IMG/VR virus record: IMGVR_UViG_2541047679_000011
Source: a virus
Taxonomy: Duplodnaviria; Heunggongvirae; Uroviricota; Caudoviricetes
Length of the DNA stretch: 10,969 nucleotides
Strand: one strand, 5' to 3'
Both the position numbers and the translations under genes were made by a program. This document shows, one piece after another, positions 1 through 10,969 of this stretch. Position 1 is the first letter of the stretch; each line of letters starts with the position of its first letter. The notes below the pieces were generated by a model that worked only from the letters and a program-made list of their open reading frames with translations, had not been told where the DNA came from and searched no databases.

Positions 1-603
1 GTGCTGATTGGCTATGTAAGGGTATCAACAAATGACCAGAATACAGACCTGCAACGAAACGCTCTTGTTTGTGCAGGATGTGAACAAATATTTGAAGATA
101 AATTAAGCGGGACAAAGACAGACCGACCGGGATTAAAACGCGCTTTAAAGCGCCTTCAAAAAGGTGACACGCTGGTTGTCTGGAAACTGGATCGCCTCGG
201 GCGAAGCATGAAACATCTGATTTCTCTCGTCGGGGAACTACGGGAGCGAGGAATTAATTTTCGCAGTCTGACCGACAGCATAGATACATCTTCTCCAATG
301 GGGCGTTTTTTCTTCCACGTGATGGGTGCCCTGGCTGAAATGGAACGTGAATTAATTGTTGAACGTACACTGGCCGGACTGGCGGCAGCGCGTGCACGGG
401 GGCGCACAGGCGGACGTCGACCGAAGCTGACAAAAGAACAGCATGAGCAAATAGCAAGGCTGATCAAAAACGGGCACGACAGAAAACAACTGGCAATAAT
501 TTACGGCATTGGTATATCGACGATTTATCGTTACCACCCCGCAGGAGAATCAAGCGGAACAATAGAGAAGAGTCAGGAAACAAATAAATATCCTCCGGCA
601 TAG
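1..603 (+). CDS. Serine recombinase / site-specific DNA invertase, Hin/Gin/Pin/Cin family
   Basis: 200-aa ORF with GTG start at window position 1. The N-terminus MLIGYVRVSTNDQNTDLQRNAL carries the catalytic Ser in the YVRVST motif typical of resolvase/invertase enzymes. The C-terminal helix-turn-helix (QLAIIYGIGISTIYRY) and the 190-200 aa length match Pin/Hin/Gin. Upstream sequence, including any RBS or crossover site, lies outside the window. Confidence 0.9.
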   Translation: MLIGYVRVSTNDQNTDLQRNALVCAGCEQIFEDKLSGTKTDRPGLKRALKRLQKGDTLVVWKLDRLGRSMKHLISLVGELRERGINFRSLTDSIDTSSPMGRFFFHVMGALAEMERELIVERTLAGLAAARARGRTGGRRPKLTKEQHEQIARLIKNGHDRKQLAIIYGIGISTIYRYHPAGESSGTIEKSQETNKYPPA

Positions 604-1297: not shown

Positions 1298-1326
1298 AAC
1301 CGCTAATCTGACCATTAGCGGTTTTT
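1298..1326. terminator. Bidirectional intrinsic terminator between IS200 and the tail operon end (downstream of U)
   Basis: Perfect 10-bp stem aaccgctaat (1298-1307), loop ctgacc, attagcggtt (1314-1323), followed by ttt(g)t on the plus strand and preceded by an A-rich run, which gives a U-tract on the minus strand. It lies 8 nt downstream of the U stop codon (1335-1337, minus). Confidence 0.55.
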
Positions 1327-1334
1327 GTGTTAAA

Positions 1335-1829
1335 TCAGAACAGCCCTTTAACTGAACTGGCCGCGCTGTTAAGAGATGATGTCACCTTATCTTTGAAGCC
1401 GGACAGCATATCGCTGAACGATGAGGATTGCAGGCGCTCCCGCAAATCCTCATCACAGCGTTCAAGGGTCAGTGAAAATTCTATCTTTTTCGCCTTACCG
1501 TAGCGATCAAACTCGGAACGGGTCGTATTCGTTTCAGTCAGCACATACATGCCGTAAATCTGCCCGACACCATCAATCAGAGGCCAGGGGCGTCCTGTAT
1601 ATGCCTGCGTGGTCAGCAACGAAAGCGACACTTCGCCACCTGTAATTTCAGGATAAAGCACGCCAGAAAGCACAATGCGATCATCACCTGCACCGATATA
1701 CTGCCAGCTTGCTGAGCGGTTAACGCGTTCATTTTTCACATGCCGCCAGCTTTTGTTTTGCTGTAACTGCTGATGCGGCAATGTGCGCAGCTCAAAAACA
1801 AACATGCCGTAGATCATCATCATGGCCAT
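1335..1829 (-). CDS. Phage tail protein, P2 gpU-like
   Basis: 164-aa ORF immediately downstream of the tape measure gene, in the P2 FETU order. Size and position match gpU (about 160 aa). Family assignment is from gene order and recalled similarity, not a search. Confidence 0.78.
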   Translation of the reverse strand: MAMMMIYGMFVFELRTLPHQQLQQNKSWRHVKNERVNRSASWQYIGAGDDRIVLSGVLYPEITGGEVSLSLLTTQAYTGRPWPLIDGVGQIYGMYVLTETNTTRSEFDRYGKAKKIEFSLTLERCDEDLRERLQSSSFSDMLSGFKDKVTSSLNSAASSVKGLF

Positions 1830-1835
1830 GACTCC

Positions 1836-4652
1836 TCAATCTTTATCGTAAAAACTGCCACGTCCGGCACGGGCGCGCCGTTCCATCTCTGCCCTGACCA
1901 TTTCACCGACCAGTTTCGCCAGTTCGCGGGGATTCTGCGTAACAACGTTATGCAGATGGACATGAATTTCACCACCAAATCCGGAGGCAACAGGCTCCCG
2001 GTTACGGGAAGTTACAGGAACTGATGCCACTGGCGATCGTATGGCCTCCGCCACCGGGCGGGAGCTGGCCGCAACAACAGGGACCAGCGCCGGAGGCAGC
2101 GGAGCCGGGACCACGGGGGTGATATTAATTGCGGGGGCAGGCTTACTGACCTGCGCAATCTTCCGCTCCTGCCACTCCCCACGAACAGCAAGTGCGCGGG
2201 GCAGGTTCTTAAAGACAATATCGCCGGGGCCAATGCGTTTTTTCGTCTCATCAACCAGCTTACCTGTGTTATCAGCAATTTTGCTGAGTCTGCGTAGCGT
2301 CCCGGTATTGCTGTCTGTGAGCGGTTTGTTGTCTTTGGGTTTATCACCTCCGGTGCCATTGCCATTTTCCACAGGCTTCGGCGGATTGATTTTCGCCAGG
2401 TCCCCCTGAAGCAAGGCAACCTTGTCCTGAAGAATGGCCGCACGCTGTGCGTCTTCGATTTTCTTGCGCGCCCTTTCCGCTTCATCCGGAAGGACGCCAA
2501 GTTTTTCAAGTATCCACGCCAGCGTATCCAGTAGCATTTTTGCAGGTGTCAGAACAAGTTGTAACGCACCGCCAAGAACGTTACCGAATATCTCGCCAGC
2601 ACTGGTACATTTATCCAGCGTTTCCTTGCTGGACTCCATCGGTGACAGCAGCGATTTAAACCAGTTAAACACCAGGCTGATCCCGCTTCCGATTGCGTCA
2701 AAAACAGGACCAAACCGTTCAAAGGTTTCGCGCAACGGGGTCAGCCTTTCCATAATCCCGCTGAACACCCCGGCAAAAAATGCCCTGATGGGATCCCAGT
2801 ATTTCCAGATAAGAACGGCAGCTCCGGCAAGCGCAGCCACGATAAGACCAACCGGACTGAACAGCGCCCCGATAGCGCCTCCCAGTAAAGAAACGGAACC
2901 CGTCACCATTCCCCACAGCGCAGGCAACACCCTGACGACATTCATTGACCGGGTAAGAATGTCAAAACCAAGACGCAGGGTGGCCAGCTTCCCGTAAAGC
3001 ACCCCAATAACCAGCGACAACGAGCCAATCGTTGCAGTCATTGCCAGCAACGCACCGCCTGCTATCAGTAGCTGGCGCGTCAGCACCGGATGGGCCTGCG
3101 CCAGCGAGGTGATTTTTTCAAGCACCCGCGTGAGCCACTGCGTGACAGAACGCAGCGGACCGTCAACCAGATCACTGATGCGAATACGAAGACCTTCCCA
3201 TGCGCTGTCGAGATTTTTCAGGTCCCCATCAAGATTATCGGCCATTACTTTTGCGACGCGATCGGCCTCTCCCCTTGCCCCCTGCAATTCTCTGGTCAGT
3301 TTTTGCAGCTCTCCTGAACCAGCCGCCGCAACAAGCGTCTGCAAACCAACGAACGCCTCTTCTCCGGCGATGTCCTTGAAGAAGGAAACCTGGTCCACCT
3401 GTCCGTATTTTTGTGTCGCCTTATAAAGATCAAGCAGCACATTCTCCATCGGGCGCATTTTGCCTCTGGCGTCAGCAACTGACACTCCCAGCTCTTTCAG
3501 CGCATCAGCCGCAGCTTTTGGCGGTGATGCAAGGCGGGACAGACTTGCGCGCATGGCCGTACCAGCATCGCTTCCGCGAAGACCATTATTGGCAAGCATC
3601 CCGGCCATGGCTGCCGCTTCTTCAAGACTGATACCAAGTTTTGCGGCAACCGGACCGGTATACTTCATGGTTTCGCCCAGCGCGCGTAAATCAGTATTGG
3701 TCCGGGTGAATGCCGCTGTCAGCGTATCGCCAACCCGGTCCATTTGATCGGCTGTCAGGTTGAACTGTGTGAGGATATTGGAGCCTATATCAGCCGTCTC
3801 GCCGAGTTCGACGCCACCTGCCAGCGCCATATTAAGAACACCGGGCAATGCGGCCTGAATGGCCTGCGGAGTAAAACCAGCCATTGCCAGAAAGCTCTGC
3901 CCACTGGCGGCATCACTCGCAGTAAACTGTGTTTCAGAGCCAAGTTTTAACGCCTGCTCACGCAGCGCCTTAAACTGCGGGCTGTTTTTGTCGATTCGCG
4001 TCAGTGCCTGAACGCGGGACATCTCTTTGCCGAACCCGATCGCAGGCTGCAAAAAACGCCCGGCAGCATAGCCGCCCGCCGCTGCCGCACCAATTGCCAG
4101 TGCACCACCTGTTTTCAGTTTTCCCGCTGTTTCCTGCGCGCGCGAATACCGCTCACGCGCCCGCGTTACACGCGCAAGCGCCTGCCGTTCGCGTTCAAGC
4201 TGGTTGTTGTACTGTTCGGTGCGTCTGATGGCCTGCTGGATGGTGTTATCGCTGCCTGTCAGGGAAATGCCGTGGCGTTTCAGCTCTCCGCCAAGCTCCC
4301 GCATTTTTTGAATTTCCCGTGTGCGCGATTCATTCAGGCGTTCAAGCCGGGTGCTTAACTGCTGCATCAGCTTTTGTTGTTTTTCGCTGAGCACTGTACC
4401 CGTGCGTTGTAACTGATTAAGGGCGTTAAGCTGGCGTCGTGCTTTCACGATGCCCGCATCCGCTTTACTGACAGCGTCACGGGCGCGCTCAAATGAACGC
4501 GCCTGACGCTCGAGATTTTTGATCGCCCCCTGCGTTCGCTGGATGGAGTCACCAAACTGCCCCATCAGGCGGCGGGCGTTTTCGGCAGGCCGGGTCAGCC
4601 TGTCAACGGCGCTGAAAGCGACCCGGATATCAAGAGTCTTCATTATCTGCAT
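1836..4652 (-). CDS. Phage tail tape measure protein (P2 gpT-like)
   Basis: 938-aa ORF with a coiled-coil, Q/R/E/L-rich N-terminal half, a central cluster of hydrophobic Gly/Ala-rich helices (LLIAGGALLAMTATIGSLSLVIGVLYG..., AALAGAAVLIWKYW) and a Pro-rich C-terminus, as expected for a tape measure protein. It follows the E/E' pair. An alternative start at ATG 4641-4643 (MKTLDIR) has better SD spacing. Confidence 0.9.
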   Translation of the reverse strand: MQIMKTLDIRVAFSAVDRLTRPAENARRLMGQFGDSIQRTQGAIKNLERQARSFERARDAVSKADAGIVKARRQLNALNQLQRTGTVLSEKQQKLMQQLSTRLERLNESRTREIQKMRELGGELKRHGISLTGSDNTIQQAIRRTEQYNNQLERERQALARVTRARERYSRAQETAGKLKTGGALAIGAAAAGGYAAGRFLQPAIGFGKEMSRVQALTRIDKNSPQFKALREQALKLGSETQFTASDAASGQSFLAMAGFTPQAIQAALPGVLNMALAGGVELGETADIGSNILTQFNLTADQMDRVGDTLTAAFTRTNTDLRALGETMKYTGPVAAKLGISLEEAAAMAGMLANNGLRGSDAGTAMRASLSRLASPPKAAADALKELGVSVADARGKMRPMENVLLDLYKATQKYGQVDQVSFFKDIAGEEAFVGLQTLVAAAGSGELQKLTRELQGARGEADRVAKVMADNLDGDLKNLDSAWEGLRIRISDLVDGPLRSVTQWLTRVLEKITSLAQAHPVLTRQLLIAGGALLAMTATIGSLSLVIGVLYGKLATLRLGFDILTRSMNVVRVLPALWGMVTGSVSLLGGAIGALFSPVGLIVAALAGAAVLIWKYWDPIRAFFAGVFSGIMERLTPLRETFERFGPVFDAIGSGISLVFNWFKSLLSPMESSKETLDKCTSAGEIFGNVLGGALQLVLTPAKMLLDTLAWILEKLGVLPDEAERARKKIEDAQRAAILQDKVALLQGDLAKINPPKPVENGNGTGGDKPKDNKPLTDSNTGTLRRLSKIADNTGKLVDETKKRIGPGDIVFKNLPRALAVRGEWQERKIAQVSKPAPAINITPVVPAPLPPALVPVVAASSRPVAEAIRSPVASVPVTSRNREPVASGFGGEIHVHLHNVVTQNPRELAKLVGEMVRAEMERRARAGRGSFYDKD

Positions 4653-5168
4653 TCCCGCTGCGAAGTGCCGCCCGCTCGCGCCAGCTAACCACTTCGCCGG
4701 GCGTCATCATGAAGATTTCGGCGGGCGACCAGTTAAAAATGGCGGCAATATCCGCCACCAGATCTTCGATGTGCTCAAAGCACACCAGGGTGATTACGCT
4801 GCCGTCTCCTGCACGCTCTTCGCGCCAGAGTCTGGCTCGCTCATAAAATTTACAGCCACAGCGCACAACTGAATAAAATCGCGTGACGACATTTTTTTAA
4901 TCATCACTTCATCCAGTCGTGGCGAGGTCACGCGAGGCAACAGCGTAAACATGGTATCCGCTTTCAGATTCAGCACATCAGACAGCGACAGACCACGCAG
5001 GGATCCAGCCTGCTCAATAGCCCCGGTGATCTCCACATACGTGATTTTTTCGCCACCACGCTCAATTGGTCGGGTCAGTTTTACGCCACGTTCGACAGCC
5101 ATATCCTCACCTGCCGTCACATCATCCGCCACGGTGTTATTCCGGGTTTCAGTATCGATGTCTTTCAT
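4630..5168 (-). CDS. gpE+E' fusion product made by programmed -1 ribosomal frameshift (predicted)
   Basis: The -1 frame relative to E is open from the TAA at 4897-4899 (minus) down to 4630 and overlaps the T start by about 23 nt. Two slippery candidates lie in the E frame inside this window: an A7 run (minus strand, plus-strand T7 at 4892-4898) and the heptamer A_AAT_TTT (minus, 4851-4845). The feature is a join across the shift site; the exact site is undetermined. Confidence 0.55.
4794..5168 (-). CDS. Tail assembly chaperone, P2 gpE-like
   Basis: 124-aa ORF between the tube gene and the tape measure gene. It has an AAGGAG SD 7 nt upstream of the ATG. Its 3' part overlaps a -1-frame ORF that runs into the start of T, which is the E/E' arrangement of P2-like phages. 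Confidence 0.75.
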   Translation of the reverse strand: MKDIDTETRNNTVADDVTAGEDMAVERGVKLTRPIERGGEKITYVEITGAIEQAGSLRGLSLSDVLNLKADTMFTLLPRVTSPRLDEVMIKKMSSRDFIQLCAVAVNFMSEPDSGAKSVQETAA

Positions 5169-5223
5169 CAGTTGTCTCCTTTTCAGTCAGAGGCGACGCA
5201 CTGCGCCGCCTGCATATTACTTA

Positions 5224-5736
5224 TCAGCCAAGCCCAAGCGCGGAACGGATACGGTCAGGCACAATGTCCTTGCCGTCCTTCCGGTAGATGTGGTTCAACA
5301 GGTCGATTTCCCACAGCGGGCGATCGTTAACGCTCAGCTTGTAGTAGGTGTTTTTGACAGCGTAAGTGTGTGATGTGGCTTCGCCCTGTTTGGCTTCCCC
5401 CATATCAATTTCCGTCACACGCCCGCGCATCTCGATTTCATACAGATCGCTTTCTGCATCGGTGTAGTATTCACCCGCAAAACGCAGCAGCGTGCCGTCA
5501 ATCGTGCCGCCATATTTAAGGAACAGCGCACGAACAGCTCCCCCCATAACAAAACTCGCATCAAGCGCGGAGTCGTCCAGACCGAGATCAATACTTACCG
5601 CCCCCATCATGCCACCACCACGATAGCTGTCGGTTTTGCGCGTCAGTTTGGGCGGCGTGACGGACGTCACCTTACCCACTTCGTTTTCACCATCCACAAA
5701 CAGCGTAAAAAAGCGAAGATGTTTTGGTACAGCCAT
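5224..5736 (-). CDS. Major tail tube protein, P2 gpFII-like
   Basis: 170-aa ORF with translation MAVPKHLRFFTLFVDGENEVGKVTSVTPPKLTRKTDSYRGGGMMGAVSIDLGLDD...MRGR...EIDLLNHIYRKDGKD, resembling P2 FII (tube) in length and motifs (PKLTRK, DLGLDD). The start overlaps the FI stop (TGATG) and is preceded by a GGGAGGTG SD. Confidence 0.9.
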   Translation of the reverse strand: MAVPKHLRFFTLFVDGENEVGKVTSVTPPKLTRKTDSYRGGGMMGAVSIDLGLDDSALDASFVMGGAVRALFLKYGGTIDGTLLRFAGEYYTDAESDLYEIEMRGRVTEIDMGEAKQGEATSHTYAVKNTYYKLSVNDRPLWEIDLLNHIYRKDGKDIVPDRIRSALGLG

Positions 5737-6920
5737 CAGGCACCTCCCAGCACCGCAAATGCGGGACCAAAGAATTCATCAGTAAACGACTGGTAAAGCT
5801 CCATGTCTTCCAGCGGAGGAACGGGCGTATATTTGTAGCGAATACGCACACGCCCCTGACGTAAATTCGTGGTGCTGTTATCCACGATGTCATACCAGCA
5901 CTCCGCGCCAATCAGTTTCCCGGCAGTAACCAGTGAATCCAGTTTTGCCCTGATGGCACTGATAACATCCTTCACGTTCGCAGGCGTCAGTGGACTGTCG
6001 ATGGTTTCAAACTGCGCTTCCGCAATTGAATCAGCCAGCACCTGTGCGGTTCGGGTATACACCTCAAAGATGTAGGCGTTCGTTTCCGGTGTGCGGTTGC
6101 CCCAGAAGCGGAACCCGTTGCGACGAATAATGGTCGTGATTTCTTTGTTGTTGAGGCTGTTGGCATCGCTGTCTTCGGCCTGCAACGACCAGAACACATG
6201 CCTGGACATCCCCAGCACATTTTTAACCGGAACGTTGGACAGTGATTTGTGCCATCCCTGCTCATGGTCAATGTACGCACGAAGGCCGCACGCATAGGCA
6301 GGCGCGGGGAACGTTTCGTTTTTGCCACTTTTCGGGTTGTAGGCGATGAAGTCCGGCCATAAGAGCATCACCTCACGTTCATTGAATTTCTGGCGGTAGG
6401 TAATCGCCTCAGCCATCGTGTTACAGCCGTGACATGAGGCATACACAAACGCGCGCAGTTTACCCGCAATCACGCACAGGGATTTTGTTACCGCCTCCGT
6501 GTCCAGCTCCGGCGCGGCCAGAATACGCGGACGGTATCCGATGCTTTCATCCTGCTCTGCAACAAGCAGCGCATACATCCCCGTATAGCTGCCGTCAGAT
6601 TCAGAACCACCGATAACCAGTTGATCCTGCGTTTTTCCGTCTTCTTCTTTGTGTTCAGCCACGCGAACGACGATCACCTTTGTGCTCACCTGGTCTGCGA
6701 TGGCCTTAAGCGCACGATAAAGCGTCCCCGTTGTTCCGCATTTTCCCAGCACGTCATTGACGCGGGTCAGCAGTGTGGGCTTGTTCAGCGGGAACAGCTC
6801 CGCGTCCGCATCATCCGCCGTTGCCACGATACCGATAACACTGGAATCAACATCATTAATCGCTGTTACCAGGTCGGTACTTTCCGTAACACGGGCACCA
6901 TGAAAACGAGTTTCACTCAT
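5736..6920 (-). CDS. Contractile tail sheath protein, P2 gpFI-like
   Basis: 394-aa ORF with strong resemblance to P2 FI across its length (FPLNKP, KLRAF, WPDF, QGWHKSLSNV, IRRNGFRFWGNRT, YTRTAQV, YTPVPPLE). An AAGGGG SD lies 9 nt upstream of the ATG. Confidence 0.92.
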   Translation of the reverse strand: MSETRFHGARVTESTDLVTAINDVDSSVIGIVATADDADAELFPLNKPTLLTRVNDVLGKCGTTGTLYRALKAIADQVSTKVIVVRVAEHKEEDGKTQDQLVIGGSESDGSYTGMYALLVAEQDESIGYRPRILAAPELDTEAVTKSLCVIAGKLRAFVYASCHGCNTMAEAITYRQKFNEREVMLLWPDFIAYNPKSGKNETFPAPAYACGLRAYIDHEQGWHKSLSNVPVKNVLGMSRHVFWSLQAEDSDANSLNNKEITTIIRRNGFRFWGNRTPETNAYIFEVYTRTAQVLADSIAEAQFETIDSPLTPANVKDVISAIRAKLDSLVTAGKLIGAECWYDIVDNSTTNLRQGRVRIRYKYTPVPPLEDMELYQSFTDEFFGPAFAVLGGA

Positions 6921-7077
6921 AGCTTCAGCCCCTTGTATCCGTTAAATGATTCGGCAACAATCATCACCCACCACGCGCGTAATCTCACCCCTGCGCCGTT
7001 CTCCCGACCCGGCGACAACAAAAAGCAGTAACCCCCTCCGCACGCACATGCGACCATGCCGCACAGGGAGGGAACAG
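6921..7077. promoter_or_regulatory. Divergent FI / D intergenic region; presumed location of back-to-back late promoters
   Basis: 157-bp gap between the divergent start codons of FI (6918-6920, minus) and D (7078-7080, plus). P2 late operons are driven by Ogr-dependent promoters, but no clear TGT-N12-ACA Ogr box was found by eye, so the call is positional only. Confidence 0.3.
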
Positions 7078-8187
7078 ATGACCGATACCACCATGCAATT
7101 GCTCAGTCAGGGCACAGACCCCGTGAAAATGCCGGATTTTGATATTCTCGCGGAGGGTAAAACGCTGTCAGGCGTGGCAGAGCGCCTGATGAGCCTGTCA
7201 CTGACCGACAACCGGGGATTTGAGGCGGACCAGCTCACCATCACGCTGGATGATGCGGATGGTCAGTTGCAGCTACCGCCACGGGGCGCGTGCCTGACGG
7301 TTCTCATTGGCTGGAAAGGAGAACCGCTGACAGAAAAAGGCACTTACATTGTTGATGAAATCGCTCACGAAGGACCGCCGGACAGGCTGACTGTTTCAGC
7401 CAGAAGCGCAGATTTTCGGGATGAATTTAACGTTAAACGTGAGGTGTCCTGGCATGATGTGACCGTTGAGCGTGTGGTATCCGCCATCGCTCATCGGTAT
7501 GGTCTGAAACCGCAAATCAGCGAAATGCTGATGGATATCGAAATCGACCACGCCGACCAGACCGAAGAAAGCGACATGTCCTTTCTTACGCGCATGGCGG
7601 AAATGCTGGGCGCAATCACCACGGTAAAAAGCGGTAATCTGTTATTCATTATGCCAGGCGGTGGCGTGAACGCACAGGGCCAGCCGTTGCCATCGTTCGC
7701 CATTACACGCAGCAGCGGCGATCGCCATCAGTTCCGCATTGCTGACCGCGAGGCGTATACGGGTGTACGCGCCTACTGGCTTGATCTTAATTACGGGAAA
7801 AAGAAAAAAGTCAGCGTGAAACGCCGCAAACCGCCAAAACCCAAAAAGGAGAAAAGCAGTAGCCGTGAAGGTGATTATATGGAAGGCGCGGAAGGCAATG
7901 TGTTTGTGTTACGCAAGACTTATCAGAACGAGCAGGCAGCAAGACGCGCAGCGGCGGCAAAGTGGCAGCAGCTACAACGCGGAGCCGCATCATTCTCCAT
8001 CATGCTGGCACGTGGACGCGCAGAACTCTACCCCGAAATGCATGGCACGGTAACAGGATTTAAAAGCGAGATTGATAATCAGGACTGGATTATTGCGAAA
8101 GCCGAGCACACCATTGATAACAGCGGCTTTACCACGCAGCTTGAGCTTGAAGCAAAAATCCCGGAATGGATAGCAGAAACAGAGTGA
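7078..8187 (+). CDS. Phage late control / tail protein D (P2 gpD family)
   Basis: Translation from ATG 7078 (GGGAGGG SD 6 nt upstream): MTDTTMQLLSQ...PDFDILAEGKTLS...LSLTDNRGFEADQLTITLDDADGQL...GW..., matching gpD-family proteins. The track ORF starting at 6946 adds 44 N-terminal residues with no SD and would occupy the divergent promoter region. Contains an unusual K/R-rich insert (GKKKKVSVKRRKPPKPKKEK). Confidence 0.85.
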   Translation: MTDTTMQLLSQGTDPVKMPDFDILAEGKTLSGVAERLMSLSLTDNRGFEADQLTITLDDADGQLQLPPRGACLTVLIGWKGEPLTEKGTYIVDEIAHEGPPDRLTVSARSADFRDEFNVKREVSWHDVTVERVVSAIAHRYGLKPQISEMLMDIEIDHADQTEESDMSFLTRMAEMLGAITTVKSGNLLFIMPGGGVNAQGQPLPSFAITRSSGDRHQFRIADREAYTGVRAYWLDLNYGKKKKVSVKRRKPPKPKKEKSSSREGDYMEGAEGNVFVLRKTYQNEQAARRAAAAKWQQLQRGAASFSIMLARGRAELYPEMHGTVTGFKSEIDNQDWIIAKAEHTIDNSGFTTQLELEAKIPEWIAETE

Positions 8188-8438
8188 GCAACTTGGATGC
8201 ATTAGCTCAGACCAAAGCTGGCACGCTTACGACGCAGAACCAAACCTAATCTGACAGTCCGCTTTGTACCAGAAGCAGACATTAATAACATTATTTGCAA
8301 TAACCAATTGATATTGTTTTTATTGCGTGTTATTAAAGCATATCCACTTGTGGTCATTACCAACTACTCGTCTATTTTTATTTGTGAACAAAATCAGATT
8401 TTAGCTAGAAACATTTTGTGAAAAAAATAGCGAAATTT

Positions 8439-8467
8439 TTGTAGGAAGTAAGTCAAGCAGATATAGC
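8439..8467 (+). promoter_or_regulatory. Candidate sigma70 promoter for the cargo nuclease gene
   Basis: TTGTAG (8439-8444), a 17-nt spacer, then TATAGC (8462-8467), inside a region of roughly 22% GC about 70 nt upstream of the cargo ATG. Pattern match only, and several alternative AT-rich hexamers exist. Confidence 0.25.
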
Positions 8468-8536
8468 AGCAGATCGGAAGTTATTGGTCATGCGTTATTT
8501 ACTCTAAGCAAAAAAACTTAGTACAGGAAAAAATAA

Positions 8537-10120
8537 ATGGCAAGTAAAGCTAACCTTGTTAATTTGGATGCGATGATTTCAAGAGAGGATTTCTCTGCTC
8601 AATCCGATAATGATTTATCTTTCGAATCTATACAAAATATAGCTATGAGAGATATCGGAATGTTGTCTGGCCTACTCAGAAAACCAGATTTTCAGAGAGA
8701 AACAAATCACTGGACTCCAGAGCAAGTAGTTTCATTACTAAAGAGTTTTGTCACAGGTGATTTAATACCATCCGTGATTTTATGGAAGAGTTCTTTTGTG
8801 TTTGTTATAGACGGTGGTCATAGACTTAGTGTTTTAAGAGCATGGAAAGAAAATGACTATGGTGATGGCACTATATCGCAAAAATTCTTTGGAAATAGTA
8901 TTTCCGGAGAGCAAAGAAAGATCGCACAAAAAACAAGAGAATTGGTTGACTCCACAGTTGGTAAATGGTCTGAGATAGAAAGAAAAATGCAGGATTCTAA
9001 TAATGACCATGATGAGAGTAGAAGGCTTACAAATATTTACGTAAGGGCTTTGCAAGTCCAGTGGGTTAAAGGTGATTCCGATAAGGCAGAAACGTCTTTT
9101 TTCAATATAAATAAAAAAGGTACTCCTTTAGATGAGGTTGAGGAAACTTTACTTAGGCATAGGAAGAAACCTATATCTATCGCTGCGAGAGCAATAATAC
9201 GAGCAGGAAAAGGACATAGATACTGGTCCTCTTTCCCTGAGGATAAGACTAAAAAGATAGAAGAGCTTTCCTCAAATATAAACTCCTCTCTTTTCGATCC
9301 AGACGTTAAATCTCAAATTAAAACACTCGATCTACCTCTGGGTGGCTCACGCGGTGTGAGGTTAGCTCTTGATATCTTAATAGATCTTATGTCTATTTCC
9401 GTGTCCCAGAGCGAAAATTATCAAAAAGAATTGCTTAATCAAATCGAAGATTCAGATGGAAGCGAAACTGTTGTTGTTCTGGAAAAAACCGCAAAATTAC
9501 TAAATTGGATTACTGGAAATGACAAGGGCAGCTTAGGATTACATCCGGCCGTGTATTTTTATAGTGCATCAGGCAGACATGTGAATCCTATGTTTTTAGG
9601 GACGACTCTGTTTATAGCGAAAAAATTAAAATTTAATGATAAGAACTTCTTCAAAAAATTCACAAGTATTAGGTTTAATTTAGAGAAAACTCTAATAAAC
9701 AATAAGTCTATGCTAGCATCGTTAGTGAACAGAGCAGGACATAAGAAAAGAACTGAGTATTACTCTAATTTATTTGAGTCAATGATTGATTTCCTTCTTG
9801 AGGTAAAAAAGAAAGACAAAAGCATGAGTGATTTCAGCCTTACAGAAAGTGAAATACTCCAGCTTGCTCACTTTGAAGGTAATATCCTATCTGGGACAAG
9901 TATCAGCAATGCAACTAAAATTAGTGAGGAAGCGAAGAATGCTGTATTCATTGATACTGCATTAGCTTCAGCAATTACATGTCCTATCTGCCAGGGATAT
10001 TTAGATCCTTCAAAATCTGTCTCATATGATCACATCAAAAGAGTTGCAGATGGTGGTAAAGGTTCGGCAAAAAATACTCAGTTAACTCACCCGTATTGCA
10101 ATATGTCTGTCAAAAATTAG
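8537..10120 (+). CDS. Two-domain nuclease: N-terminal DUF262/ParB-like (DGQHR-type) domain plus C-terminal HNH (His-Me finger) endonuclease motif; GmrSD/BrxU/SspE-like candidate anti-phage defence protein
   Basis: 527-aa ORF with AGGA SD 8 nt upstream. N-terminal motifs KPDFQRETNHW and FVIDGGHRLSVL match the DUF262 signature (xQRxxxW ... DGQQR/DGQHR). The C-terminus CPICQGYLDPSKSVSYDHIKRVADGGKGSAKNTQLTHPYCN is a classic HNH pattern (CxxC...DH...GG...N...H..CN). GC content is about 35-38%, against about 57% in the neighbouring tail genes. Confidence 0.85.
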   Translation: MASKANLVNLDAMISREDFSAQSDNDLSFESIQNIAMRDIGMLSGLLRKPDFQRETNHWTPEQVVSLLKSFVTGDLIPSVILWKSSFVFVIDGGHRLSVLRAWKENDYGDGTISQKFFGNSISGEQRKIAQKTRELVDSTVGKWSEIERKMQDSNNDHDESRRLTNIYVRALQVQWVKGDSDKAETSFFNINKKGTPLDEVEETLLRHRKKPISIAARAIIRAGKGHRYWSSFPEDKTKKIEELSSNINSSLFDPDVKSQIKTLDLPLGGSRGVRLALDILIDLMSISVSQSENYQKELLNQIEDSDGSETVVVLEKTAKLLNWITGNDKGSLGLHPAVYFYSASGRHVNPMFLGTTLFIAKKLKFNDKNFFKKFTSIRFNLEKTLINNKSMLASLVNRAGHKKRTEYYSNLFESMIDFLLEVKKKDKSMSDFSLTESEILQLAHFEGNILSGTSISNATKISEEAKNAVFIDTALASAITCPICQGYLDPSKSVSYDHIKRVADGGKGSAKNTQLTHPYCNMSVKN

Positions 10121-10150
10121 CAATGAGTTAACAATTTTATATCAGATAAC

Positions 10151-10175
10151 AGCCTTCTATAATTGAAGGCTTTTC
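10151..10175 (+). terminator. Intrinsic terminator downstream of the cargo nuclease gene
   Basis: agccttc (10151-10157), loop tataatt, gaaggct (10165-10171), followed by ttt; located 31 nt after the cargo stop codon. Confidence 0.6.
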
Positions 10176-10377
10176 GTATGATGCTTTCTTCAATAGAAAT
10201 GTTGAGTATGATGGAAGATCTCTAATAGTGAATGGTTCGGTTAGGCCAGATACCTACCACTCTACACAAAACTTTGTGTCCGATCCTCGCTCACAGCAGT
10301 CGCTCCCAAGGGTTTCAGTTGGAGTCTGAGCTAGTACAACTTAGAATAGCGGCAGCACCACGTTAAGGGAGGTCGCT

Positions 10378-10638
10378 ATGTTCCGTTGTCCGCTTTGTGG
10401 CGCATCTGCCCGTATCCGCACCAGTCGTCCGGAAAATGATTCAAACACCGTGCGGCAAAAGTATTACCAGTGTAACAATCTGGAATGCGGCGTATGCTTC
10501 TCAACACTGGAAGCTTTCCATAAATTCACATCAAAACACGCCTCCGGCGTTCACTCTTCAGAAGGTATCCCGTGGCATGAGCTGCCAGCTTCACACAGGG
10601 GAAACAATCAGATGAGCTTGCCTTTACCTCAGAATTAA
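10378..10638 (+). CDS. ogr: Ogr/Delta-family zinc-finger late transcription activator
   Basis: Translation MFRCPLCGASARIRTSRPENDSNTVRQKYYQCNNLECGVCFSTLEAF... shows the CxxC...RTSR...YxQCxNxxC pattern of P2 Ogr. AGGGAGG SD 6 nt upstream. The 86-aa ORF is somewhat longer than the 72-aa P2 Ogr. Confidence 0.8.
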   Translation: MFRCPLCGASARIRTSRPENDSNTVRQKYYQCNNLECGVCFSTLEAFHKFTSKHASGVHSSEGIPWHELPASHRGNNQMSLPLPQN

Positions 10639-10828: not shown

Positions 10829-10969
10829 ATGTCGCAAAAATCGCTTACGGCCATCACGTTCTGCGTGACGGCAATCCTCATCATCTGGATGCTGCACGGT
10901 TCGCTGTGCGAAATACGGATGAGCTTCTGGGGAGCGGAGTTTGCGGCGTTCTTACAGTGTAAGCAGTAA
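10829..10969 (+). CDS. Hok/Gef-family type I toxin-like small membrane protein (46 aa)
   Basis: Not in the supplied ORF track (under 60 aa). ATG 10829 with AAAGGAG SD 8 nt upstream and TAA at 10967-10969. Translation MSQKSLTAITFCVTAILIIWMLHGSLCEIRMSFWGAEFAAFLQCKQ has a single N-terminal TM helix followed by SLCEIR...E(F)AAF, closely matching the Hok signature (…SLCEIR…REVAAF…). Confidence 0.65.
   Translation: MSQKSLTAITFCVTAILIIWMLHGSLCEIRMSFWGAEFAAFLQCKQ

Follow-up and report, generated by a model that had tools for sequence, protein, structure and literature searches.

A divergent FI/D gene order is an ordinary feature of P88-like phages of the Peduoviridae

In phage P2, the tail genes and the late-gene activator gene are colinear in the order FI-FII-E-T-U-D-ogr, all on one strand. 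The window analysed here, a whole stretch of 10,969 nt, carries P2-like orthologues of FI, FII, E/E', T, U and D (Pfam; 42–49% identity to P2) in a different arrangement: U, T, E/E', FII and FI occupy the minus strand, while D, a GmrSD-like cargo gene and ogr occupy the plus strand, so that the canonical single-operon order is absent. Two explanations had been offered from the letters alone, a rearranged or decaying prophage and a naturally variant layout whose late promoters diverge. The comparisons described below make it very probable that the inverted FI–U block is the standard and ancient order of the branch containing P88, PhiSM and SEN4/5, and not the outcome of decay, an invertase switch, a recent event or mis-assembly.

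The broken P2 synteny and the strand assignments of the sequence-only reading were borne out by gene calls, Pfam and BLASTP against P2 proteins. The left neighbour of the block is a Gin/Pin-type DNA invertase gene (1–603, plus; Pfam Resolvase and HTH_7 domains) which converges on tail gene U (1335–1829, minus; Phage_P2_GpU, 5.5e-39; 46% identity to P2 U). The block continues on the minus strand with the tape-measure gene T (1836–4652; PhageMin_Tail, 5e-56; colinear with the P88 tape-measure gene), the tail chaperone genes E (4794–5168; a weak Phage_TAC_7 match, with a GpE family protein annotated by RefSeq in the SCU-387 prophage) and E' (4630–4866, in the -1 frame as read from the sequence), the tail tube gene FII (5224–5736; Phage_tube, 2.1e-45; 42% identity to P2 FII) and the tail sheath gene FI (5736–6920; three Pfam sheath domains; full length with 46% identity to P2 FI). 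A candidate slippery heptamer, A AAT TTT, is present at 4851–4845. On the plus strand lie D, an intact tail/baseplate hub gene of 369 codons (7078–8187; Phage_GPD; 49% identity to P2 D over residues 19–369), and ogr (10378–10638; Ogr_Delta, 5.1e-14; 42% identity to P2 Ogr), whose translation contains the zinc-finger motif CX2C-X24-CX4C of an Ogr/Delta-type C4 activator. By BLASTP against the P2 proteins, none of the seven tail ORFs is truncated or broken. Between D and ogr sits a low-GC (~35%) cargo gene for a GmrSD-like DUF262 and HNH protein (8537–10120, plus; Pfam GmrSD_N, a weak HNH match and the name given by RefSeq), which gave a weak NsnA match against PADLOC; in relatives, this interval contains SIR2 or PIN proteins, or nothing. 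As proposed, FI and D diverge from starts 157 bp apart (FI ATG at 6920 on the minus strand; D ATG at 7078, preceded by a Shine–Dalgarno sequence). Further, flipping 1335–6920 would give invertase-FI...U-D, exactly as found in L074, L081 and other loci of the sister clade.

Mis-assembly is excluded, as the FI/D and invertase/U junctions are contiguous in many complete E. coli genomes: a 701-bp FI/D junction probe was contiguous in 1358 of 5426 (about a quarter), and the IS-free invertase/U junction in 621. Of the 1376 E. coli records that matched, 1360 kept the FI/D junction.

The window belongs to a P88-like (Xuanwuvirus-type, Peduoviridae) E. coli prophage, of which it forms the right-hand end. 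It aligns on one strand and in one place with P88, 500465-2, P884B11, Citrobacter Shae_phiSM, PhiR44_2 and Chuche. Against P88, 74% of the window is aligned at 94.1% identity, the gaps corresponding to the IS200 element and the cargo gene, and the P88 annotation itself reads invertase on the plus strand, U-T-E'-E-FII-FI on the minus strand and D on the plus strand. The window thus shows the Xuanwuvirus traits of nucleotide identity and colinearity with P88, and of divergent FI and D with an invertase gene convergent on U. The SCU-387 prophage, which is 100% identical, has a complete P2-type gene set adjoining ihfA. A broader survey of IMG/VR loci gave the same picture. The divergent order was found in 65 of 65 informative loci with an FI 55–99% identical to that of the window, and the colinear order in all nine informative loci nearer to P2 itself. 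Phages of the genera Reipivirus and Senquatrovirus are divergent, while a Gegevirus phage is colinear. In the neighbour-joining tree of FI and in that of D, the divergent loci all fall into a single clade together with the Reipivirus and Senquatrovirus phages; being unrooted, the trees can be read as an inversion in this branch or as the reverse event in the P2 clade. Collectively, the locus survey, the two trees and the conserved elements of the FI/D spacer support the natural variant architecture. In a clade comprising the P88-like lineage, its sister genera Reipivirus and Senquatrovirus, and unnamed relatives, FI-FII-E/E'-T-U is fixed in the orientation opposite to that of its two neighbouring gene groups (J-I-H-G for the tail fibre, and D-ogr), very probably through one ancient, clade-defining inversion. 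In the papers searched, on P88-type phages, SEN4/5 and other P2-like phages including those of Burkholderia, no explicit description of the inversion was found, and the articles on P88, PhiSM and SEN are silent about it.

The alternative that survives best replaces the inversion in situ with module replacement, in which an ancestor took up a foreign FI–U cassette in the opposite orientation. The mosaicism of P2-like phages, and known cases of other rearrangements of the tail operon such as that in Smp131, lend this idea some plausibility. However, the distance to P2 is uniform across the breakpoints, with FI (46%), FII (42%) and U (46%) inside the block about as far from P2 as D (49%) outside it. 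Moreover, the divergent clade appears in the FI tree as in the D tree and is similarly structured within, as expected if FI and D travelled together. Module replacement is hence regarded as unlikely, and an ancient inversion remains the preferred reading.

Since an intact serine invertase gene adjoins the block, and is 93–98% identical to the invertase genes of Mu, D108 and other phages over positions ~1–380, the FI–U block could be imagined as an invertible segment switched by this Pin/Gin-type enzyme. The G segment of Mu, the C segment of P1 and the P segment of e14 have inverted 26-bp crossover sites at their flanks and exist in both orientations. These systems (Gin, Cin and Pin) resemble the window in having a closely related invertase gene beside the block, but the FI–U block has neither crossover sites nor both orientations. 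The window contains no sequence within three mismatches of the crossover site used by this phage type and no match to the AAACCNNGGTTT crossover core, and no inverted repeats were found at the block boundaries. The real crossover sites instead flank a tail-fibre segment upstream of the invertase gene (16691–16715 and 19426–19450 in locus L002). The other orientation was seen in none of the 65 informative clade loci, and many clade members with the inverted block have no invertase gene (e.g. L007 and L011). A switch is thus extremely improbable, and a connection of the left endpoint with the Pin-like invertase is not supported.

The same endpoint had also been associated with IS200. The element, a 711-bp IS200C-type insertion sequence (583–1293, minus), carries a Y1 transposase gene (692–1201, minus; Pfam Y1_Tnp) and the sole Rfam match of a gathering-threshold search, an IS200-derived STnc490 (1160–1283); its ends can be placed only to within 6 nt, since both flanks carry AAATAA. 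Its insertion changed the C-terminus of the invertase from ...ETK-stop to ...ETNKYPPA-stop. As only 40 bp separate it from the block on the left, it might be suspected of having mediated the rearrangement or of having caused an assembly error. However, the window holds only one IS200 copy, at one end, with IS copies or remnants at both breakpoints not encountered; no inverted repeats flank 1335–6920. The site is empty in alignments with SCU-387 and P88, and the invertase/IS junction occurs in none of the 5426 complete E. coli genomes, yet relatives still share the gene order. This IS200C copy is thus peculiar to the one genome and has no bearing on the gene order, and an origin of the inversion at IS200 can be set aside with near certainty. 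The element is a later insertion just upstream of a bidirectional intrinsic-terminator hairpin (1298–1323; terminator scan), which lies between the stop codons of U and of the invertase gene and has T-runs on both sides. Folded on both strands, in the window and in an IS-free relative, the hairpin has folding energies between -16 and -21 kcal/mol whichever strand is taken, and its z-scores range from -3.7 to -5.6. As noted from the sequence, then, U is followed by a terminator and not by D, and its transcription would end at a hairpin that also serves the invertase gene converging on it.

The idea that the prophage of this strain is decaying and was inverted recently, so that the F operon was broken and D lost its promoter, fares no better and has next to no probability: the gene order is unlike that of P2, the upstream tail-fibre genes are annotated as pseudogenes in the closest complete genome and an IS element adjoins the block, but the tail ORFs are all intact and full length, promoter elements in the FI/D spacer are conserved, and functional phages share the order along with the 1358 complete genomes. 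P88 is induced by mitomycin C and forms plaques (PMC5285337), PhiSM is released spontaneously and lysogenises K-12 (PMC6456863), and SEN4/5 form plaques and myovirus particles (PMC5261728). Of the two explanations first offered, the rearranged or decaying prophage is refuted on its own terms because functional relatives, colinear with the window in the case of the P88-type phages, carry the divergent FI/D order as the norm. The divergent FI/D order is an ordinary feature of already known phages.

How D could remain expressed once separated from the F operon is suggested by the 157-bp divergent control region between FI and D (6921–7077), delimited from the sequence and its conservation across the clade, where its length is 151–167 nt. 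It contains a putative Ogr-binding site, TCT-N12-ACA, at 7000–7017, with its centre 88.5 nt away from the start codon of FI and 69.5 nt away from that of D. Every distinct intergenic sequence of the clade has exactly one T[CG]T-N12-ACA site in this constant place, its centre 79.5–88.5 nt from the FI ATG. Distant clade members have TGT-N12-ACA at this spot, in place of the TCT-N12-ACA of the window, and ACAAC is invariant in 17 diverse sequences. Further, -10-like elements are conserved 46 nt on either side of the site centre. The putative -10 of the FI side, GATGAT (6960–6965, minus), follows an nAnnnT pattern conserved at a fixed distance in an ungapped stack, and its position coincides with the -10 of P2 PF in the stack alignment. 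On the D side, the putative extended -10 TGcGACCAT (7049–7057, plus) belongs to a TGn-nAnnnT pattern that is likewise conserved at a fixed distance across the clade; such an extended element could work without the activator.

Late promoters of this type are defined by a TGT-N12-ACA dyad ~55 nt upstream of the start site, the consensus and the dependence on Ogr being cited in PMC3931495. An exact search of the window for TGT-N12-ACA gave no matches; the half-sites annotated for P2's own PF and PO are also imperfect. A loose motif, TT[CG]T-N12-ACAA, occurs three times in the 49 kb of L002, about the chance expectation, with one occurrence inside gene T. The argument for promoters therefore rests on position and conservation and not on the motif count. 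The same motif, GTTCT-N12-ACAACAAAAG, recurs between P and O in prophages of this type.

On this evidence, the inversion would have carried the late promoter PF along with FI, so that D now abuts its upstream side, and the single putative Ogr dyad would lie ~55 nt from two outward-facing predicted start sites. From there it would drive FI–U leftward through GATGAT (6965–6960) and D rightward through TGcGACCAT (7049–7057). One Ogr-type site probably drives both units because the geometry equals that of P2 PF and of the shared site at P2 PP/PO. That the clade inversion turned a unidirectional PF into a bidirectional promoter, with one symmetric dyad co-activating FI–U and a separate D unit, is on balance favoured, and the uncoupling of D may have opened the D-ogr interval as a slot for cargo or defence genes. 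No description of a shared PF/PD activator site in these phages was found in the papers searched. If true, an activator site with dyad symmetry would work a second time in the other direction, and the FI/D spacer is a small case, open to experiment, of the way in which an inversion can stay viable. The main use of these results is corrective: a locus that breaks P2 synteny at FI/D should not on that account be counted as a decayed prophage, a mis-assembly or the product of an invertase switch. Instead, divergent FI and D are a reliable marker of the P88/Reipivirus/Senquatrovirus branch of the Peduoviridae.

Among known phages, the closest match is with the Xuanwuvirus phages P88, 500465-2, P884B11 and PhiSM, which share 94–96% nucleotide identity with the window and are colinear with it except for IS200 and the D-ogr cargo. 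They have the same order of invertase (plus), U-T-E-FII-FI (minus) and D-ogr (plus), and the FI/D spacer and the terminator hairpin are also identical. In P88, D and ogr are adjacent, whereas the window has its private IS200C and the GmrSD-like cargo gene. At a greater distance, Reipivirus (Klebsiella phage ST16-OXA48phi5.4) and Senquatrovirus (Salmonella phage SEN4/5) resemble the window in the divergent ogr-D / FI...U arrangement, in tail-fibre genes convergent on U and in their placement in the same clade of the FI and D trees. They differ in that their FI is just 55–70% identical and their hosts are others; SEN5, unlike the window, has the canonical TGT-N12-ACA site.

The F operon of P2 (PF-FI-FII-E/E'-T-U-D, then ogr) is comparable in its orthologues, at 42–49% identity, and in its Ogr-type zinc-finger activator. 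However, D is the last gene of the P2 operon and overlaps the stop codon of U, whereas in the window D diverges from FI and U ends at a terminator. At P2 PF, a spacing of 47 nt separates the centre of the activator site from GAAAAT and one of 82.5 nt separates it from the start codon, and the FI side of the spacer matches P2 PF in both spacings. A precedent for the proposed shared site is P2 PP/PO, where a single annotated site (3057–3087) serves start sites at 3016 and 3127. There, as in the window, outward-facing late units are 150–175 bp apart with a single dyad ~55 nt from both start sites, although the start sites are mapped for P2 and predicted here, and the arrangement is applied here to FI and D instead of P and O.

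Six-frame ORFs and Pfam place a resolvase-type DNA invertase on the plus strand of the window (1-603) and an IS200 Y1 transposase on the minus strand (692-1201), followed by the minus-strand tail genes U (1335-1829), tape measure T (1836-4652), E (4794-5168, with the E' frame at 4630-4866), tail tube FII (5224-5736) and tail sheath FI (5736-6920). D (7078-8187), a low-GC GmrSD-like gene with DUF262 and HNH domains (8537-10120) and ogr (10378-10638) lie on the plus strand. Identity to the P2 proteins is 46% for FI, 42% for FII, 46% for U, 49% for D and 42% for Ogr. In P2, FI, FII, U, D and ogr all follow the PF promoter on one strand. Here 157 bp separate the FI ATG (6920) from the Shine-Dalgarno-preceded D ATG (7078), and a hairpin with T-runs on both strands (1298-1323) follows U. 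ORFs, Pfam and the P2 comparison confirm the divergence of FI-U from D-ogr described in the sequence-only reading, which was accurate in every detail of layout, strand, spacing and hairpin. In the E/E' overlap, A AAT TTT (4845-4851, minus strand) is a candidate heptamer for -1 frameshifting; as in P2, E' is read in the -1 frame with respect to E. A hok/gef-family toxin gene (10829-10969), mokW-like in the P88 annotation, terminates precisely at the final base of the window, just within the right end of the prophage and adjoining ihfA.

The distribution of this order was surveyed in 80 IMG/VR loci that carry an FI profile (L004-L083), in which U, T, E, FII, FI, D, ogr, the invertase and P2 J/I/H/G were placed by tblastn. 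Among L004-L069, whose FI ranges from 99% down to 55% identity to that of the window, all 65 loci reaching D carry ogr and D on the minus strand, FI to U on the plus strand and G-H-I-J on the minus strand, so that the FI-U block is inverted with respect to both flanks. The loci nearer to P2 (L070-L083; FI ~50% to the window) are colinear in nine of the nine cases that reach D, and in several of them the invertase adjoins FI, the expected product of flipping 1335-6920. As every divergent locus falls in one clade in the neighbour-joining trees of both FI and D, and as divergence from P2 is even across the breakpoints, the sequences indicate one old inversion inherited across a whole branch of the Peduoviridae.

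Two explanations had been proposed from the sequence alone. A natural variant with divergent late promoters is supported by the clade-wide order and by conserved elements in the FI/D spacer. P2 late promoters are Ogr-dependent and carry a TGT-N12-ACA dyad (as cited in PMC3931495), and the P2 record has one activator site (3057-3087) common to the divergently transcribed PP and PO, which start at 3016 and 3127. In 17 diverse aligned FI/D spacers, strong conservation is confined to one core, T[CG]T-N12-ACAAC(A)AAA(A)G. Each distinct spacer of the divergent clade, 151-167 nt long, has exactly one T[CG]T-N12-ACA site, centred 79.5-88.5 nt from the FI ATG. The canonical TGT half-site is present in distant clade members; in the window the half-site of the putative site (TCT-N12-ACA, 7000-7017) is TCT, not TGT. 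When the spacers are stacked ungapped on the site, conserved -10-like elements appear 46 nt to each side: nAnnnT towards FI (GATGAT in the window, 6965-6960, minus strand) and an extended TGn-nAnnnT towards D (TGcGACCAT, 7049-7057). The geometry matches that of P2 PF, whose site centre lies 47 nt from GAAAAT and 82.5 nt from the FI ATG. Further, the same extended motif, GTTCT-N12-ACAACAAAAG, lies centrally in the divergent P/O region of this P88-like prophage type. The loose motif alone is no rarer than chance over the whole prophage; a third GTTCT-N12-ACAAC match, on the coding strand of T (2558-2577, minus strand), is chance-expected at this sequence length and lacks the AAAAG extension common to the two intergenic sites.

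The simplest reading of these sequences is an inversion that carried PF along, with one site shared by the FI and D promoters. PF would have moved together with FI, and the dyad-symmetric activator site would then have been recruited for a second, outward-facing promoter of D. Transcription of U would stop at the hairpin at 1298-1323, which would also terminate the convergent invertase gene. Alternatively, the D promoter could be activator-independent. The shared-activator-site model for FI and D, proposed here, is new only to a modest degree. The divergent architecture is already known as fact because several published phage genomes with an ICTV classification show it; the accessible papers, those on P88, PhiSM and the SEN phages among them, make no comment on it.

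The IS200 and the invertase, which adjoin one end of the block, are bystanders to its orientation. IS200C is a 711-bp insertion at ~583-1293, as aligned to the empty site in P88 and in E. coli SCU-387, the nearest complete genome. It separates the penultimate invertase codon from the terminator hairpin, changes the invertase C-terminus from ETK* to ETNKYPPA*, and includes the IS200-derived STnc490 RNA (Rfam; 1160-1283). The insertion is private to the window's genome: of 5426 complete E. coli genomes, none has its junction with the invertase. An invertase gene is missing from many clade members that carry the inverted block. In this phage type the crossover sites (SCU-387 locus L002, 16691-16715 and 19426-19450) bracket a tail-fibre segment upstream of the invertase; no crossover-like sequence was found across the window, and a search for inverted repeats bracketing 1335-6920, a check proposed with the sequence-only reading, found none. 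The block thus belongs neither to invertase-switchable segments nor to IS-mediated inversions.

The other proposed explanation, a rearranged or decaying prophage, is refuted, on the very condition set in the sequence-only reading, by functional phages with the same divergent order: P88, a plaque former, was recovered after induction with mitomycin C (PMC5285337), PhiSM, described as ~77% identical to P88, is released spontaneously and lysogenised K-12 strains (PMC6456863), and SEN5 is a plaque-forming myovirus (PMC5261728). The SCU-387 prophage, which is 100% identical to the window apart from the IS, is complete, P2-type and adjoins ihfA. Its tail-fibre and fibre-assembly genes before the invertase (L002 15431-19424) are annotated as pseudogenes, and PGAP splits D (L002 26123-26976) into an 801-nt CDS and a fragment; the D ORF is nevertheless intact (369 aa) and the same as in the window. 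Only ~10 bp separate S from V in this prophage type (L002 13080-13092), and no intergenic region there matches P2's PV promoter; therefore the baseplate and fibre operon (V-G) may differ from P2 in its expression. In the PhiSM paper the tail is described as long and non-contractile, of siphovirus type (PMC6456863). Record OR565851 (Shae_phiSM), at 95.5% identity to the tape-measure, tail-tube and D features of the window, looks like a P2-type contractile-tail genome by sequence; micrographs or names may have been swapped. Assembly error is excluded by the FI/D junction (701-bp probe) and the invertase/U junction, contiguous in 1358 of the 5426 and in 621 complete E. coli genomes, respectively.

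In P88-like prophages the D-ogr interval (8188-10377) acts as a slot for variable cargo. The window's GmrSD-like cargo has a GC content of ~35% and only a weak PADLOC match; other E. coli prophages carry SIR2-family or PIN-domain proteins, P88 has none, and D-ogr spacing in the IMG/VR loci ranges from ~45 bp to ~4 kb.

Collectively, divergent FI/D order is an ordinary feature, the norm for these phages and not a lesion. By megablast against phage genomes the window aligns in a single place, on a single strand and at 92-96% identity, with Escherichia phages P88, 500465-2, P884B11, 520873, PhiR44_2 and Chuche and Citrobacter phage Shae_phiSM, the sole gaps being the IS200 and the D-ogr cargo. 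P88 is annotated as tail fibre (+), invertible fibre segment, invertase (+), U-T-E'-E-FII-FI (-) and D (+). The window is thus a member of the P88-like phages, differing only in its private IS200C and its own cargo. Beyond Xuanwuvirus, Reipivirus Klebsiella phage ST16-OXA48phi5.4 and Senquatrovirus Salmonella phage SEN5 have the same divergent order, whereas a phage of Gegevirus is colinear; the window, like its entire clade, lacks the F-operon order canonical in P2.
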